DNA of 19,979 nucleotides from the UHGV virus genome UHGV-0128318. One strand, written 5' to 3'. Both the position numbers and the translations under genes were made by a program. This DNA comes from a virus. Below the pieces are notes generated by a model. That model was given only the letters and a program-made list of their open reading frames with translations. It was not told where the DNA came from and did not search any database. Positions 3,447 through 9,506 of the stretch are shown piece by piece (positions within the stretch are counted from its first letter, which is position 1; each line of letters opens with the position of its first letter).

Positions 3447-3734
3447 TTACGGATTAAGAGAGTGGAAATACCTAACTAACTTACCGGCATCATCACATTT
3501 TTCTTTATCTTCTTCCTTAACATAGCCGCGACAGAAGGCTGAATAAAATTTCGCATTTTCAGAAGCAAAAGCAGCCGTCGAAAGGAGCAGTTCTTTGCAT
3601 GATTCTTTTGATGCAGCATCGGGATTATTTTTACATGCAAGCTCCGCTGATGAGTTAATAACAGAAATGCTATCTTCCTGGGCATAAACCGCAGCAGAAA
3701 AGGCAAAACATAAAACCAAAATAAAACTCTTCAC
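3447..3734 (-). CDS. Small secreted protein, about 95 aa, with a signal peptide (KSFILVLCFAFSAAVYA|QE) and four Cys in the mature part; function unknown
   Basis: GTG start at 3734-3732 with AGGAG at 5-nt spacing (the track's longer start at 3758 lacks an RBS); classic n-h-c signal peptide with AxA site; locally AT-rich. Confidence 0.5.
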   Translation of the reverse strand: MKSFILVLCFAFSAAVYAQEDSISVINSSAELACKNNPDAASKESCKELLLSTAAFASENAKFYSAFCRGYVKEEDKEKCDDAGKLVRYFHSLNP

Positions 3735-4674: not shown

Positions 4675-7600
4675 TTACCCATAGAAAGCGCCCTGCTCTT
4701 CGTAGCTGCATGGGCTATTCCCGGTAATGTATTCACGTAACCGCCGCAGTTCATTGCTGGATAAGTGATCCATGAACTCTGTGAGGTACAGAGAGGCAAA
4801 CGTCATAGCTATGCTGGCTGATGACCATGATGACATAGTGGCCAGCTCCTCACCGGAAAGCGCACTCATCGCCCAGGACTCAGGTACAACCACTGGCAAC
4901 ACAGCCAAAGCCTCAGAAATTACTGAATGAGGGGCGTTTTGAACCTGCTCGTTTGTGGATCGCGTTTTATCATCCATATATATATTGAGATCCAAATCGC
5001 GATCCATTTCGATGGCGGTCTTCTCGGCTTTACGCGTTTTCAGGGTTAGGCCATCTTTCTGACGCTGAGCAAGAATATCCAGCATAAATGCCGCTGATTC
5101 AGGCTCAACAAAACGCAAGGTTGGACGCTTATCGCCGTCTCTGCCGCGACGTTTACCTGTTTTAAGGCCAAGAGAGTCGCAAATGTTTTTAAACAACGCT
5201 TCCGGCACTTTAGGCTTCCCTTTTGGCGTCATAAAACCACCAATGTGCAGAACGTTATTCAACAGGTCACGGCGTTCGGCTGTCATGAGGTTATCTCGAG
5301 CGAATTTGAGACGCTCCTGAGTCGCCTCGCCGGTCATAGTCTCAGGGTTGATACCGCAGTCGATAAAGTACTGCCGGAGAGTTGCTGATTTAAGCGCATA
5401 GAAACCGCGCGCCCCGACTTCAACAGTAGGAGTAGCTTTTACCTTGTGATCGATTATTCCAGGGAATTTAGTTTTAAAGACATCATCAGCCTGCTCGCGA
5501 GTCATCGCGGTCACTACAAAATATTGCCACTGTCCCGCCTGACGGTATGCGTAGGTAAAATTGATGGCTGCTTCTTCCCGGTCGTAACGACGAGCTGTTA
5601 CCTCATCTAAAAGCATTGTTTCATAGCGGCGAACTTTGTCTCGAGCACCATCGAAATAGAATTTCAGCGTGCCTTCTTCAACCGGTAGTTTCAGTTCGTT
5701 TTCAATATCCCAGCGGACAAGTTTTGCCTGTTCTTCAAGCGTCAGCGCGCGTTTTTTTAGCAGTTCTTCACGCTCTGATTCTTGTGGAGTTTCTGTATTG
5801 AGGTGCAGATCCAGTGTCTGTTCCCACACAATATCCCGCGCTTCTTTACGCAGATCTTTACCGATATCATTCGCAGCATAATCGGTGGCCAGCGGTGATA
5901 CCTTATAACCGTCGCTGTGCATGATGCAGATCATGTTGCTGGCGTAGTCGTTACGCGCAGTCGCTTCAATTGCGGCTGCTTTAATTTTCATCCTGGTAAA
6001 GTCGGTATTGGCCACCCCCATTGATATACGGTCGCCATCGAAAACGACATCCGTAAGTTCACCGTTCATACCTGCGGTAGCAAGCAATGCCTGGGCGAAT
6101 GCTCGTTCTATTTTTTGCGGGTCAGTTTCACGTTTTGCACGAGCTTTATCAAAGCCGATAATAAATTCTTTTGCTGTACGGTCGCGGCGTAGCATTTGCA
6201 CTGCGTCGCTGGGTACAACTTCACCACAGAACATGCCGAAATGACGGTCAAAATGTTTTTGCTCAATCGACACGCCGGATGAAATAGACGGGCTATAAAT
6301 CAGGCCGTCGTATTTTTTGACCATCTTTTTCGGTTGATTGGTAAATGCTTCAACTTCTGGCTCTGGTTTGTTTTTCTGGTTTACACACAGAAATTTCTTA
6401 CCAGGAAAATGCATTCTCAGGGTGGCTGTCACATCTTCTGCAAAGGTGGAGCTGTCGGTGGCCAACATGATTTTTTCGCCATCCGATACAGCTTTCACCA
6501 CCTCGGTCATGATGCGATCTTTTTCTGTATAAAAAACCCGGATTGGCTCACCTGTTTCGCGGTTGCGAACATCAACAGGTAATTCAATTACGTGGATCTG
6601 CAGCCATGCCGGTAAACCTAGTTCTTCACGGCGTTTCATAGCCAGTTCAGCCAGGTCAACCAGTAGATCGTTCGCATCAGCATCCACCATGATTGGGTGT
6701 TGTTCCGTTCTGGCCAGCGCGTCAATTAGCGTATTGAATACAGCAACCGGGTTTTCCATAGCCCGACCGGAAAGAACGGCACGTAGCCCTTGCGTGGCCT
6801 CGTCAAAGCCAAAATAGTCGTGCTGGCGCATCAACGGTTGCCAGCAGTTTTTAACAATCGAGTTTATGCAGATGGTCAGTTTACTGGCGTATGGAGCCAT
6901 TTCCTGATAGCCAGGGTCCTGATAGTGCAGGATATCGGCTTTTACACCTTTTCCTTCTGTCATCATTTCCCACAGGCCACCAATAAGGGAGACACGGTGA
7001 GCAACAGAGATACCACGTTCTGAGCTATGCATTAACGGTCGTAACAATCCAGTAGATTTGCCGGAACCCATACCAGCACGGACGATGACTATCCCCTGTA
7101 GTGATTGCACGTACTTCAGGACATCATCGGTCATTACCGAAGTTTCAAAACGCTTATAGGTGATATGTTGAGGGCGTTTATTGGGATCAGTTATGCGTTC
7201 GCTGAAAGAGCGCGGAGCCTGGGCAATACGGCACTTTTTATTCAGGCGACGGGCAATGTGGTCTTTTACCGTAGCGCGATAGATATTTTCCAGTCCCATT
7301 TCACGCAGAACGATGCAGAACATGTTAAATAAATCTGACGGACTGTTAGGAACCGGGCAGGTTAGCATGCCAATATCCACCGCTCTCAGCAGCTCTTTGG
7401 CAAAAGTACGACGGTTATCCCGCTTAATTGTCTTCAGGCGGTTGAGCGTCAGAGATAGCAAATCAGTGCCAGTTTTCAGGCGGTTTGCAGTTGCAAACAG
7501 TTGACGTGCTGTTTCACGAAGTCCACGTAGTTTGTGCAGGTCGTTGAAGTCACTGCACTCCATTTGCGGATCGTCTTCAAAAGTTGGATAGACGCAGCGG

Positions 7601-8664
7601 ACATCGTTGAATTTCGATAAGATTTCATAGCCAGTCCGCAGGCCGGTATTCCCTTTTCCTTCTGTAGCTGATTTCCGGTCATTATCCAGTGCGCAGGTGA
7701 TTTTTGCCGCCGGGTACATGTTTACCAGTTGTTCCACAACATGAACCATGTTGTTAGCGGATACAGCGACAACCACAGCGTCAAAGCGTTTATCTTTTTT
7801 CGTGGCAAGCCAGATGGATGCACCAGTAGCAAAACCTTCTGTAACAGCGATGTTTTGCGCCCCTTTCAGCTCACCGATAACAAAGCAGGCACCGACGAAA
7901 TCGCCGCTGGTTACGGCGCTGGTCTGGTATTTTCCACCTTGTTTGTCGATTCGCTGCCAACCAACAATACGACCATCGTAACGACCGTCCAGGTGAGCCA
8001 GAGGGATAGCCATATACGTGGTTGGCCCCCTGCTCCATTTTGCGCTGTCGTGACTGGTCACGCGACGCACATCACACGAATTAAAAACGTCACGAATACC
8101 TTTTTTAATCGCATATGGCCATGAGCCGTCTTCTGCAGGAGCATGTTCCCAAGCACTGTGGAATGCCAGCCATCCCAGCAAACGTTCATGGTCCATTTGG
8201 TTGTTTTTCAGGTCATTAATTCGTTTTTGTTCTTCACGGCGACGACGTGCTTCACGTTCTATTCTTGCCCGTTCTTCTTCCGGTTGTGCGACCACGGTCG
8301 CATTATTCCGTTGTTGCTCACGGCGATATTCAGAAAACAGGAAGGAGAAACCGCTCCATGAGCCAGCATCGCTGCCTTTATGGACGAAGTTAATGAACGG
8401 GTAATCAATCCCTTTGCTGTGTTCCAGTCGGGAGTAAATTTCTACGCGTCCTTTGAGGCTCTTCTCGAGAGCTTCTGGAGATGTTTTATTGTATGAAGAG
8501 TAACGCTCAACACCCCCGCGAGGGTTGAGTTGGATGTTGTCGGAACAGGCAGACCAGTTGATACCAGCCATCTGTGCCAGCTCGGTTAGTTCATCCCGTG
8601 CTGCTTCAATTAGCGAGAACGGATCGCTGCCAAAGCGATCCGCATAGAAATCGTTTAATGTCAT
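4675..8664 (-). CDS. repA: RepA-type multidomain replication protein (primase-helicase), 1329 aa, with a Walker A motif (GMGSGKST)
   Basis: Size and position (next to cB, transcribed away from cro) match N15 repA, which is about 1.3 kaa; NTP-binding motif seen. All + strand track ORFs between 5616 and 8404 are antisense artefacts of this gene. Confidence 0.9.
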   Translation of the reverse strand: MTLNDFYADRFGSDPFSLIEAARDELTELAQMAGINWSACSDNIQLNPRGGVERYSSYNKTSPEALEKSLKGRVEIYSRLEHSKGIDYPFINFVHKGSDAGSWSGFSFLFSEYRREQQRNNATVVAQPEEERARIEREARRRREEQKRINDLKNNQMDHERLLGWLAFHSAWEHAPAEDGSWPYAIKKGIRDVFNSCDVRRVTSHDSAKWSRGPTTYMAIPLAHLDGRYDGRIVGWQRIDKQGGKYQTSAVTSGDFVGACFVIGELKGAQNIAVTEGFATGASIWLATKKDKRFDAVVVAVSANNMVHVVEQLVNMYPAAKITCALDNDRKSATEGKGNTGLRTGYEILSKFNDVRCVYPTFEDDPQMECSDFNDLHKLRGLRETARQLFATANRLKTGTDLLSLTLNRLKTIKRDNRRTFAKELLRAVDIGMLTCPVPNSPSDLFNMFCIVLREMGLENIYRATVKDHIARRLNKKCRIAQAPRSFSERITDPNKRPQHITYKRFETSVMTDDVLKYVQSLQGIVIVRAGMGSGKSTGLLRPLMHSSERGISVAHRVSLIGGLWEMMTEGKGVKADILHYQDPGYQEMAPYASKLTICINSIVKNCWQPLMRQHDYFGFDEATQGLRAVLSGRAMENPVAVFNTLIDALARTEQHPIMVDADANDLLVDLAELAMKRREELGLPAWLQIHVIELPVDVRNRETGEPIRVFYTEKDRIMTEVVKAVSDGEKIMLATDSSTFAEDVTATLRMHFPGKKFLCVNQKNKPEPEVEAFTNQPKKMVKKYDGLIYSPSISSGVSIEQKHFDRHFGMFCGEVVPSDAVQMLRRDRTAKEFIIGFDKARAKRETDPQKIERAFAQALLATAGMNGELTDVVFDGDRISMGVANTDFTRMKIKAAAIEATARNDYASNMICIMHSDGYKVSPLATDYAANDIGKDLRKEARDIVWEQTLDLHLNTETPQESEREELLKKRALTLEEQAKLVRWDIENELKLPVEEGTLKFYFDGARDKVRRYETMLLDEVTARRYDREEAAINFTYAYRQAGQWQYFVVTAMTREQADDVFKTKFPGIIDHKVKATPTVEVGARGFYALKSATLRQYFIDCGINPETMTGEATQERLKFARDNLMTAERRDLLNNVLHIGGFMTPKGKPKVPEALFKNICDSLGLKTGKRRGRDGDKRPTLRFVEPESAAFMLDILAQRQKDGLTLKTRKAEKTAIEMDRDLDLNIYMDDKTRSTNEQVQNAPHSVISEALAVLPVVVPESWAMSALSGEELATMSSWSSASIAMTFASLYLTEFMDHLSSNELRRLREYITGNSPCSYEEQGAFYG
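4950..5010. other. Candidate internal replication origin element: AT-rich stretch (catatatatatt) with three GATC sites within about 50 bp, inside the 3' end of repA
   Basis: Seen in sequence; N15 ori is known to lie within the 3' part of repA. Confidence 0.3.
8049..8062. repeat. Family-2 palindrome cgtgactggtcacg inside the repA 5' coding region
   Basis: Perfect 6-bp arms around a 2-bp centre; same core as 3366-3385 and 14369-14382. Confidence 0.6.
8287..8302. repeat. SopB-type centromere-like palindrome tgcgacc-ac-ggtcgca (family 1), inside repA coding sequence
   Basis: 7-bp perfect arms; core GACCACGGTC resembles the F sopC binding site TGGGACCACGGTCCCA; four more copies in the window. 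Confidence 0.5.
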
Positions 8665-8718
8665 TTTTTAGCCATTCCATGCGAATTATGTTTTTTCGGG
8701 TTGAAAAAATCCGCAGGA

Positions 8719-8774
8719 GCAGCCACAATAAACGCATCTTGAATTGACGGAATCCGTCGCGTTGTTGTGGCTGC
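8719..8774. promoter_or_regulatory. Long imperfect inverted repeat (gcagccacaataaacgc ... gcgttgttgtggctgc) enclosing a small hairpin (gacgg-aat-ccgtc), in the repA 5' leader
   Basis: About 14 of 17 arm positions complementary; lies between the repA ATG (8664) and the cB stop (8910). Confidence 0.4.
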
Positions 8775-8787
8775 TTCCTGAAAAGGA

Positions 8788-8815
8788 CCCGAGTTTGCCG
8801 ACTCGGGTTTTTTTT
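8788..8815 (+). terminator. Strong intrinsic terminator on the + strand (cccgagt-ttgccg-actcggg then T8); in the minus orientation the same hairpin is followed by only ccuuuu
   Basis: 7-bp stem and 8 T read directly; there is no + strand gene upstream, so it may end an antisense or leader transcript, or act weakly and bidirectionally after cB. Confidence 0.5.
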
Positions 8816-8909
8816 CGTCTTTTTTCTGCTGCTGTAACCTGAGTCAACCCACAGAACATATGCCCTGCATTAAACCAGATTTACAGTAAACAATAAACCC
8901 CATATTAAG

Positions 8910-9506
8910 TCATCTACCCTCAACCATGAATGATTTGATCGTTCCGACTATTTGGTGAACAAATTCAAGATCGCTTTTCCTGAAGATGGCGCGTTGTGAG
9001 TTTGTTCCATCCAGATAGTAATTTTCATCATCAAAACGGGCCAGGCGCTGGATAGTGATATTTCCTGCAGTATCACGAACCAGAACATCCTCGCCGGGGA
9101 CCAGTTCCAGCGCAGAATCGACCAGGAGAAAATCGCCTGGCTGATAGTTTCCCTGCGTAAGATTGCTGATAGTTAACGCATACACAGTATTGCGCTGGCT
9201 GATGAATGGCAGGAATCGCTCAGTATTTGGAACCTGTCCCGGCTTCCACTCTTCATCCGGCCCACTTTCAGTTGTGCCAATAACAGGAATGCGATCAGGG
9301 TCATATTCTGTCCCATATAGCACCCAATGCACTGGCTTGCGTAAGCACTTAGCCAGGGCAATACCTATCTCCAGTGACGGCATTACGTCGCCACGTTCTA
9401 AGTTTTGGACGCCTGCTATAGAGATATCGACAGCCTCAGCAACTTCTCGCAACGTCAGCTTCATCTCTAAACGGCGTGCTTTCAGTCGTTCGCCTCGTGT
9501 TTTCAT
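8910..9506 (-). CDS. cB: Prophage repressor CB (lambda CI-like: N-terminal HTH, C-terminal S24/LexA-like domain), 198 aa
   Basis: HTH region LTLREVAEAVDISIAGVQNLERG at the N-terminus and a C-terminal domain of repressor size; divergent from cro across an operator region. Confidence 0.85.
   Translation of the reverse strand: MKTRGERLKARRLEMKLTLREVAEAVDISIAGVQNLERGDVMPSLEIGIALAKCLRKPVHWVLYGTEYDPDRIPVIGTTESGPDEEWKPGQVPNTERFLPFISQRNTVYALTISNLTQGNYQPGDFLLVDSALELVPGEDVLVRDTAGNITIQRLARFDDENYYLDGTNSQRAIFRKSDLEFVHQIVGTIKSFMVEGR

Follow-up and report, generated by a model that had tools for sequence, protein, structure and literature searches.

What does a strong intrinsic terminator end when it lies between two genes that are both read from the other strand? 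This question is raised by positions 8665-8909 of UHGV virus genome UHGV-0128318, a DNA sequence of 19,979 nucleotides (nt) that is referred to here, at its full length, as the window. The interval is exactly the 245-nt intergenic region between cB, the prophage repressor gene, and repA, which encodes a large primase-helicase, both on the minus strand. The original prediction, made from the DNA letters without database searches, described it as a highly structured repA leader carrying a plus-strand terminator with no upstream plus-strand gene, and proposed that this terminator ends a short transcript antisense to the 5' region of repA. Judged by its sequence, the window belongs to an N15-like telomere phage-plasmid. 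Sequence features, a conservation pattern, a strand-specific fold and homology to an N15 annotation bear on the question, and on balance they favor a repA control region with two convergent units, one of which would produce a countertranscript from a promoter homologous to N15 Pinc and would have a role in copy control and incompatibility. The coordinates and ends given for this RNA are predictions from sequence, comparison and folding.

Homologous elements have already been annotated, with the label 'putative', in GenBank record U45242 of the N15 immB region (Lobocka et al., 1996, J Bacteriol 178:2902). On the strand opposite to repA, this record carries 'Pinc; promoter of putative antisense RNA', with a -35 and a -10 element, and a 'putative terminator of RNA antisense to repA transcript'; on the repA strand, it carries a 'putative terminator of repA leader transcript'. 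The repA ribosome-binding site, two CB operators and 'PL; putative promoter of repA gene' are marked as well. In the complete N15 genome record and in the phiKO2 record, the same hairpin is given as a rho-independent terminator, which is called 'putative bidirectional' in phiKO2. Comparison of the window with N15 and 24 other distinct sequences gave the same element order as in N15, namely ribosome-binding site, Pinc, terminator, OL operators with PL, and cB. The features of the predicted antisense unit in the window are the following.

8701-8706, plus strand: -35 element TTGAAA of the antisense promoter (N15 Pinc homologue), from a promoter scan and identity to N15.
8724-8729, plus strand: -10 element CACAAT of the antisense promoter, within the left arm of the long inverted repeat.
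8736-8815, plus strand: predicted countertranscript of 80 nt, consisting of a 13-nt single-stranded 5' tail, stem-loop I and terminator stem-loop II with U8.
8749-8778, plus strand: stem-loop I, with a GGAA...UUCC base, a U-rich loop and largely G.U pairs.
8780-8815, both strands considered: hairpin terminator, with A4 at 8781-8784, stem 8788-8794/8801-8807 and T8 at 8808-8815.

The terminator stem is formed by CCCGAGT and ACTCGGG around the loop TTGCCG, followed by T8 on the plus strand, and is base-identical to that of N15; the 7-base-pair (bp) GC stem with T8 that had been placed at 8788-8815 was recovered exactly. A long imperfect inverted repeat nested around a smaller hairpin had been described between cB and repA, and it was present at that place. 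Its core arms (8718-8731/8762-8775) are 93% complementary, its pairing as RNA reaches 8713-8735/8759-8780, and the small hairpin GACGGAATCCGTC is enclosed at 8746-8758. Folding of the complete 245-nt interval was compared with dinucleotide shuffles, giving z = -5.3 for the plus and -6.0 for the minus strand, with 0 of 200 shuffles as good.

The search for a transcript that this terminator could end bore out one half of the earlier statement. No protein-coding gene was found upstream on the plus strand, but a putative promoter is present there, TTGAAA-17-CACAAT at 8701-8729, whose hexamers, 17-bp spacer and strand opposite to repA are identical to those of N15 Pinc (N15 positions 56-61 and 79-84). 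The promoter lies 79 nt upstream of the T-run end, and TTGAAA is constant in all 26 distinct sequences of the comparison (36 loci). We infer a start at A8736; this base is the seventh after the -10 element, so the predicted RNA extends over 8736-8815. It is without an AUG. Being short and untranslated, with a promoter in the leader on the opposite strand and an intrinsic terminator, it has in silico the characteristics of a countertranscript. The expected antisense relationship to the 5' region of repA was found to hold for the untranslated leader, to which the RNA is complementary, but not for the start of the gene itself, since the RNA ends 72 nt before the AUG and leaves the ribosome-binding site uncovered.

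Relatives with N15/phiKO2-like elements were collected using the RepA N-terminus or BLAST, giving 36 loci and the 26 distinct sequences, and with the hits from a scan of IMG/VR and metagenomes for invariant 20- and 26-mers the set grew to 117 loci, whose 32 distinct bodies fall into 9 sequence types. A genome-contig scan with a single protein gave one locus. Klebsiella phage Kpn_R1, an unverified record, was excluded for a deletion junction within the region. The comparison divides the locus into two conserved blocks and an intervening body.

8690-8736, no strand: block A, near-invariant, with a U6/A6 element, Pinc and the 3' arm of the leader hairpin.
8737-8775, no strand: variable body, common to the antisense RNA and its target, with at least 9 sequence types.
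8776-8828, no strand: block B, near-invariant, with the terminator and CGTCTTTTTTC; conservation runs into GCTGC to about 8833.

Among nine diverse genomes, the mean pairwise identity is 0.985 in block A, 0.951 in block B and 0.61 in the body, while repA gives 0.937 at codon positions 1 and 2 and 0.63 at position 3. By this measure, the promoter and terminator blocks are under more constraint than the RepA protein. Sequence conservation among the relatives stops exactly at the predicted +1, A8736, beyond which the body has many substitutions and small indels. The term 'hypervariable' was considered for the body and rejected; its divergence equals that of third codon positions, about the neutral rate, and is not demonstrably faster, so that the term overstates a drift at approximately the synonymous rate. 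Only one or two of the 26 relatives deviate in the stem, loop or T-run of the terminator, the exceptions being one extra T (L022) and a shorter T-run (L032). The original prediction had named absence of these structures from relatives as a point that would tell against it; they are kept in more than 100 N15/phiKO2-like loci and in the more distant phages PY54 and P840.

PY54 and P840 are Yersinia phages with RepA proteins that are 49-50% identical, and their arrangement is a repressor gene, about 250 nt and repA. In this space, TTGCGC-18-TACAAT aligns with the TTGAAA and CACAAT hexamers, and the -10 element is, as in the window, part of the left arm of a long inverted repeat. At the position of the N15-type terminator there is a stem of unrelated sequence, GCCCCGG...CCGGGGC, followed by T5. 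The RNA predicted from these elements is 72-73 nt long and consists of a 5' tail, a stem-loop and a terminator. Two compensatory changes, C-G to U-A and A-U to C-G, distinguish the long hairpins of the N15-like and PY54-like groups. The PY54/P840 terminator has its U-run on the plus strand only, and its minus-strand tail reads UUCGUACUCGG. The absence of a minus-strand U-run indicates that the trait conserved across the group is plus-strand termination and not attenuation of repA/cB transcription, and on sequence grounds this terminator is the strongest argument against an incidental T-run on the plus strand. The terminator is located between cI and repA, at 332-368 in the PY54 sequence (L124) and likewise in P840 (L126), and is unannotated in both records.

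These comparisons bear directly on the proposal that the hairpin is a minus-strand device, that is, a partial terminator or insulator limiting transcription from cB and PL into repA, with T8 being only the complement of the A-tract and no functional plus-strand RNA being made. The annotations of a minus-strand leader terminator in N15 and of a 'putative bidirectional' one in phiKO2 agree with this proposal, as does the position of the hairpin, about 100 nt past the cB stop and about 50-80 nt past the predicted PL start, and the Pinc-like match taken alone is no better than chance. On the minus strand, however, the hairpin is followed only by UCCUUUUC, a poor tail, as had been noticed originally. 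A terminator scan called the plus-strand site and none on the minus strand. Under a definition of a bidirectional terminator as a GC stem with a loop of 3-8 nt and a U-run of at least 5 within 8 nt on each strand, the plus strand of the window qualifies with T8 and the minus strand does not, while N15-type relatives carry U5-U7 on the minus strand. Among the relatives, the A-run that encodes the minus-strand U-tail varies from 4 to 7, whereas the plus-strand T8 is almost fixed. The plus-only U-run of PY54 and P840 points the same way, and the proposal leaves unexplained both a stem-loop specific to the plus strand and the stop of conservation at +1. A purely minus-strand function is considered rather unlikely. 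In the repA/cB sense, the hairpin would be at most a weak or partial terminator, as originally suggested and in agreement with the N15 and phiKO2 annotations; on the plus strand, hairpin and T8 are best read as the terminator of a short RNA antisense to the repA leader, again in agreement with both the original prediction and the N15 annotation.

The fold of the predicted RNA is uniform. All 32 variants have an 11-13-nt single-stranded 5' tail, stem-loop I and, directly after it, the terminator hairpin, and the base of stem-loop I is GGA...UCC across the variants. On the plus strand, stem-loop I has a mean energy of -10.6 kcal/mol and a mean z of -2.0 (range -0.1 to -3.5), and its complement has -3.5 kcal/mol and z = -0.2. 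Stability on the plus strand only implies that the structure belongs to a plus-strand RNA. Cognate halves of the stem-loop pair better than non-cognate ones in 19,756 of 20,000 permutations (244 as good), which is a modest signal, and the sequence types appear to pair stem-loop I in different registers. No conserved recognition-loop motif was identified. A search of Rfam (evalue mode, 8400-9200) gave no family match, the best being NsiR1 with 26.4 bits against a gathering threshold of 39, in the terminator only.

Two further explanations are affected by this fold. Transcriptional interference would have polymerases from Pinc collide with or occlude those from PL and cB, the RNA product being without a role. 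PL and Pinc face each other at a distance of about 130 bp, and such a mechanism needs no overlap with the ribosome-binding site. It could, however, do without a conserved RNA fold and without a strong terminator at a precise place, and the fold is kept and strand-specific; the N15 name 'inc' moreover suggests that an effect in trans was expected, although the record gives no experimental basis for it. We regard interference as the sole mode of action as unlikely. The other explanation places the function in the DNA, with the inverted repeats serving as a cruciform, a single-strand initiation signal or a protein site for replication or partition. It would account for the conservation of blocks A and B even in loop and spacer positions, beyond the needs of promoter and terminator. 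Much of the pairing is nevertheless through G.U and is strand-specific, and the variable arm changes its sequence yet keeps its pairing. A function of the repeats in DNA form is thus very improbable. The N15 replication origin is moreover reported to lie inside repA and not in this region.

If the preferred reading of a Pinc countertranscript is adopted, its target would be the repA leader, for which the following features were derived.

8713-8780, minus strand: long repA-leader hairpin, with a variable 5' arm (8780-8759), an apical part with the small hairpin (8758-8737) and an invariant 3' arm (8735-8713).
8708-8718, minus strand: candidate anti-Shine-Dalgarno (anti-SD) segment UCCUGCGGAUU, partly in the invariant 3' arm.
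8641-8687, minus strand: repA ribosome-binding region, with the Shine-Dalgarno (SD) sequence GGAAUGG and the AUG at 8664-8662.

The long leader hairpin was found in all 20 variants tested, with energies of -27 to -39 kcal/mol and z = -3.5 to -7.8 relative to versions in which the variable part was shuffled. Complementarity between the predicted RNA and this hairpin covers the 5' arm and the apical part, and it extends to the terminator hairpin upstream; the invariant 3' arm, being the RNA's own promoter, is not covered. In the window, 10 unpaired apical bases of the leader, AAUUCAAGAU, stand opposite the unpaired 5' tail AUCUUGAAUU of the RNA, and modeling makes their contact a plausible nucleation site. 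No second target was found in the window, where complementary matches elsewhere do not exceed 10 nt (chance level). The cB mRNA holds AUCUUGAAUU at 8962-8971; this segment equals the first 10 nt of the predicted RNA and is complementary to the apical loop of the leader, and a 10-nt match of this kind is at chance level (E about 1).

The same hairpin admits a reading of opposite sign, in which the long hairpin with CGGAUUUUUU is an attenuator and the RNA, by sequestering the 5' arm, prevents termination and raises repA expression. An invariant U6 does follow the long hairpin and CGGA, and pairing with the RNA would disrupt the hairpin. Four unpaired or weakly paired bases between stem and U-run are, however, atypical of an intrinsic terminator, and the PY54 long hairpin has no minus-strand U-run after it. 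Positive regulation would also mean that more plasmid gives more RNA and more RepA, the opposite of copy-number control, and it is judged quite unlikely.

How a countertranscript that negatively affects repA could reach the ribosome-binding region was approached by folding of the leader. A local hairpin of CGCAUGGAA (8683-8675) with UUCUAUGCG (8649-8641, repA codons 6-8) encloses the SD and the AUG. In 15 of 15 variants with 24 coding nt included, the probability that the SD is unpaired was 0.01-0.43; since the hairpin is predicted in all of them, repA translation may be intrinsically throttled by it. Direct occlusion of the ribosome-binding site by the RNA was rejected, because 72 nt separate the RNA from the AUG; blocking of the antisense target also left the unpaired probability from SD to AUG unchanged when the 24 coding nt were included. 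In a consensus fold of 16 leaders by RNAalifold, only helices of invariant sequence were recovered. Among them is an 11-bp helix of UCCUGCGGAUU (8718-8708) with AAUUCGCAUGGA of the SD region (8687-8676), all pairs of which are invariant. When the antisense target was blocked in transcripts of the window type ending at +3 or +12, the probability of this anti-SD helix rose from 0.38-0.46 to 0.69-0.87, and phiKO2-like and some other types responded similarly, in each case only with transcripts of nascent length. With partial and inconsistent support from such modeling, as described below, the anti-SD switch is kept as a candidate.

Some other observations concern the leader. GGGTTGA at 8698-8704, which overlaps the -35 element of Pinc, is complementary to the conserved TCAACCC at 8844-8850 near the leader start; in the minimum-energy fold of 7 of 9 variants, the entire leader domain is enclosed by this long-range helix, and the partner is invariant. 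Within the first repA codons, at 8620-8642, CGGATCGCT / AGCGATCCG form a perfect inverted repeat of 9 bp around a spacer of 5 nt. On the minus strand, a 57-amino-acid open reading frame (ORF) at 8859-8686 starts about 3 nt from the predicted PL start and spans the terminator and the long hairpin. It was found in 8 of 8 sequences of the window's clade and is absent from the other 18, in whose distinct leaders no ATG-initiated ORF of at least 15 amino acids was detected. A role as a leader peptide was rejected on account of this restriction to the window's clade.

The second of the two convergent units is the CB-controlled promoter of repA. Its features, with the flanking genes, are listed below.

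8869-8897, minus strand: repA promoter PL, by N15 homology, with -35 TTTATT at 8897-8892, a 17-nt spacer and -10 TTTAAT at 8874-8869.
8881-8896, no strand: CB operator OL2 homologue TTACAGTAAACAATAA, one mismatch to TTATAGN4CNATAA, aligned with N15 OL2.
8858-8873, no strand: degenerate OL1 homologue ATATGCCCTGCATTAA, aligned with N15 OL1 GTATAGATCGGATTAA.
4675-8664, minus strand: repA, a 1329-amino-acid ORF encoding a large primase-helicase.
8910-9506, minus strand: cB, a 198-amino-acid ORF, the prophage repressor gene.

The PL start is predicted near 8862, and both hexamers are conserved in the alignment. In N15 and phiKO2, CB binds two OL operators upstream of repA, which lowers repA transcription and copy number (PMC4488713, PMC4997575). 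The original prediction had stated that no CB-type operator occurs in the interval, and this was wrong, as TTACAGTAAACAATAA differs from the operator consensus at one position and overlaps the -35 element of PL. In the 20-kb window, only OR3, OR2 and 8881-8896 match TTATAGN4CNATAA with at most one mismatch (0.39 expected by chance). The OL1 homologue, degenerate in the window's clade, was not found at up to 3 mismatches; it keeps the T-A-N10-T-A positions, the motif common to all operators (PMC4997575). In the cB-cro region, TTATAGCTGGCTATAA is identical to N15 OR3, and TTATAGCTGGCTTTAA and TTATTGTTTATAATAA are close to N15 OR2 and OR1, which indicates that the operator specificity is that of N15. 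Judged by the operator sequences, CB may repress PL less strongly here than it does in N15.

Taken together, the following course of events is proposed. The repA leader would be transcribed on the minus strand from the CB-repressible PL (8897-8869) and by read-through from cB. It would pass the weak hairpin terminator with its tail UCCUUUUC and then fold the long hairpin 8780-8713. From within the invariant arm, Pinc would start a non-coding RNA at about A8736, ending at the hairpin with U8 at 8815. Produced constitutively, this countertranscript would lower RepA synthesis, thereby setting the copy number and exerting incompatibility. Pairing probably nucleates between the 13-nt tail AUCUUGAAUUGAC and the unpaired leader apex and would continue along the 5' arm. 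Any action on repA would have to be indirect: opening of the hairpin would free its 3' arm, whose UCCUGCGGAUU could then pair with the SD region AAUUCGCAUGGA. Alternatively or additionally, RNase III would cut the RNA duplex and the message would decay. Production of the RNA, its negative action and this mechanism are what we infer from the features described above.

Several results weigh against this model. The Pinc hexamers match the promoter consensus at only 9 of 12 positions, and matches of this quality are equally frequent in shuffled sequence, so it is the comparison with relatives that carries the argument. Block A could owe its invariance to the part that it plays in the leader RNA, and not to a promoter. 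Some sequence types have modest z-scores for stem-loop I (-0.1 to -0.9), and column-wise covariation, examined in MAFFT and covariance-model alignments, gave no excess over shuffles, with 62% of cells pairing. The RNA has no overlap with the ribosome-binding site. As for the candidate indirect route, the anti-SD switch was not reproduced in N15-type leaders, and it vanishes when 24 coding nt are included, the local hairpin then holding the SD in both states. Finally, full-text literature searches found no paper on this RNA, within a coverage that may leave out N15 papers reporting experiments.

A bolder version of the model can be formulated, which we advance as a speculation with the odds against it. 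The locus would represent an undescribed switch design, in which an RNA that makes no contact with the ribosome-binding site unzips a hairpin whose invariant 3' arm is both the RNA's own promoter and an anti-SD element, and the drifting body of at least 9 sequence types, set between the two invariant blocks, would be an exchangeable specificity cassette that decides the coexistence of telomere phage-plasmids in a cell.

Over 1.2 kb around the site, the window shows 99.1% identity with Escherichia phage YDC107_1 and 97.9% with PhiR46_1, and about 78% with N15, phiKO2 and related Klebsiella and Enterobacter phages. Positions 8560-8990 are 100% identical to an E. coli plasmid and are matched in 214 PLSDB plasmids. 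Some records depart from the common arrangement. In Kpn_R1 (L125), the junction is at about 1165-1205, in the middle of stem-loop I, and is followed by unrelated DNA; in Kpn74 (L032), beyond 940, the repressor gene beside the module is annotated on the opposite strand. Each has the look of a rearrangement or misassembly at this place. Two whole-module copies occur in some viral contigs, as in IMGVR_UViG_2657245449_000003 (L046), at 3638 and 12045, and, in inverted orientation, in IMGVR_UViG_3300045988_113976 (L009/L012). Assembled dimers may account for such contigs, or else fold-back artefacts that arise from linear replicons with hairpin ends.

Clinical Escherichia and Klebsiella commonly carry telomere phage-plasmids of the N15 type, whose copy control is known mainly through CB. 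If the model is true, the antisense RNA would be a second, repressor-independent layer of control and would probably help to determine incompatibility when such phage-plasmids infect the same cell, and it would offer a handle for tuning N15-based linear cloning vectors. To the N15 annotation, the present analysis contributes support from comparison, predicted ends at exact positions, a fold specific to one strand, the counterpart in PY54/P840 and candidate helices in the leader. A sequence-based guess of 1996 is thereby turned into a well-defined prediction, and the finding overturns nothing.

Countertranscript control of plasmid replication is exemplified by CopA/CopT of R1 (IncFII) and by the Inc RNA of ColIb-P9/IncB. 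The predicted RNA resembles CopA and Inc RNA in being a short, untranslated RNA ended by a terminator, with a promoter on the opposite strand inside the rep leader and full complementarity to its target. It also shares with them the combination of a stem-loop with a single-stranded segment, and a target upstream of the rep ribosome-binding site that implies indirect action. It differs from them in having no conserved leader peptide, no identified recognition-loop motif and no sequence or Rfam relationship; the controlled protein is here a 1329-amino-acid primase-helicase that is also under phage-repressor control. Leader-peptide coupling of the R1 tap or ColIb-P9 repY type was rejected, because no small ORF is conserved and the 57-amino-acid ORF occurs only in the window's clade.

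A second likeness is to pT181 and pIP501, in which antisense pairing promotes a terminator hairpin. As in these plasmids, an antisense RNA would face a structured rep leader with alternative pairings and a downstream U-run. Attenuation of the pT181/pIP501 type does not fit, because the predicted RNA is complementary to the 5' arm (8780-8759) of the only candidate hairpin, so that pairing would disrupt this hairpin and not create it. The OOP RNA of phage lambda, for its part, is comparable in its length of about 77-80 nt, its own promoter, its strong terminator and its place between an immunity-region gene and the replication genes in a lambdoid phage. OOP overlaps the 3' coding end of cII and targets the cII mRNA, whereas the predicted RNA overlaps only the untranslated repA leader, and the two have no sequence similarity.

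The closest counterpart is the putative Pinc RNA of N15, with which the predicted RNA shares the site between cB and repA, the element order, the promoter hexamers, the terminator stem, loop and T8, the invariant arm and the PL hexamers. The differences from N15 lie in the body 8737-8775, which is about 50-60% identical and of a different type, with its own small hairpin GACGGAAUCCGUC; in the minus-strand U-tail, U4 here and U5 in N15; and in the operators, OL1 being degenerate and OL2 substituted here. By sequence comparison, the element is a homologue of the feature predicted for N15 in 1996 and a member of the familiar class of countertranscripts.

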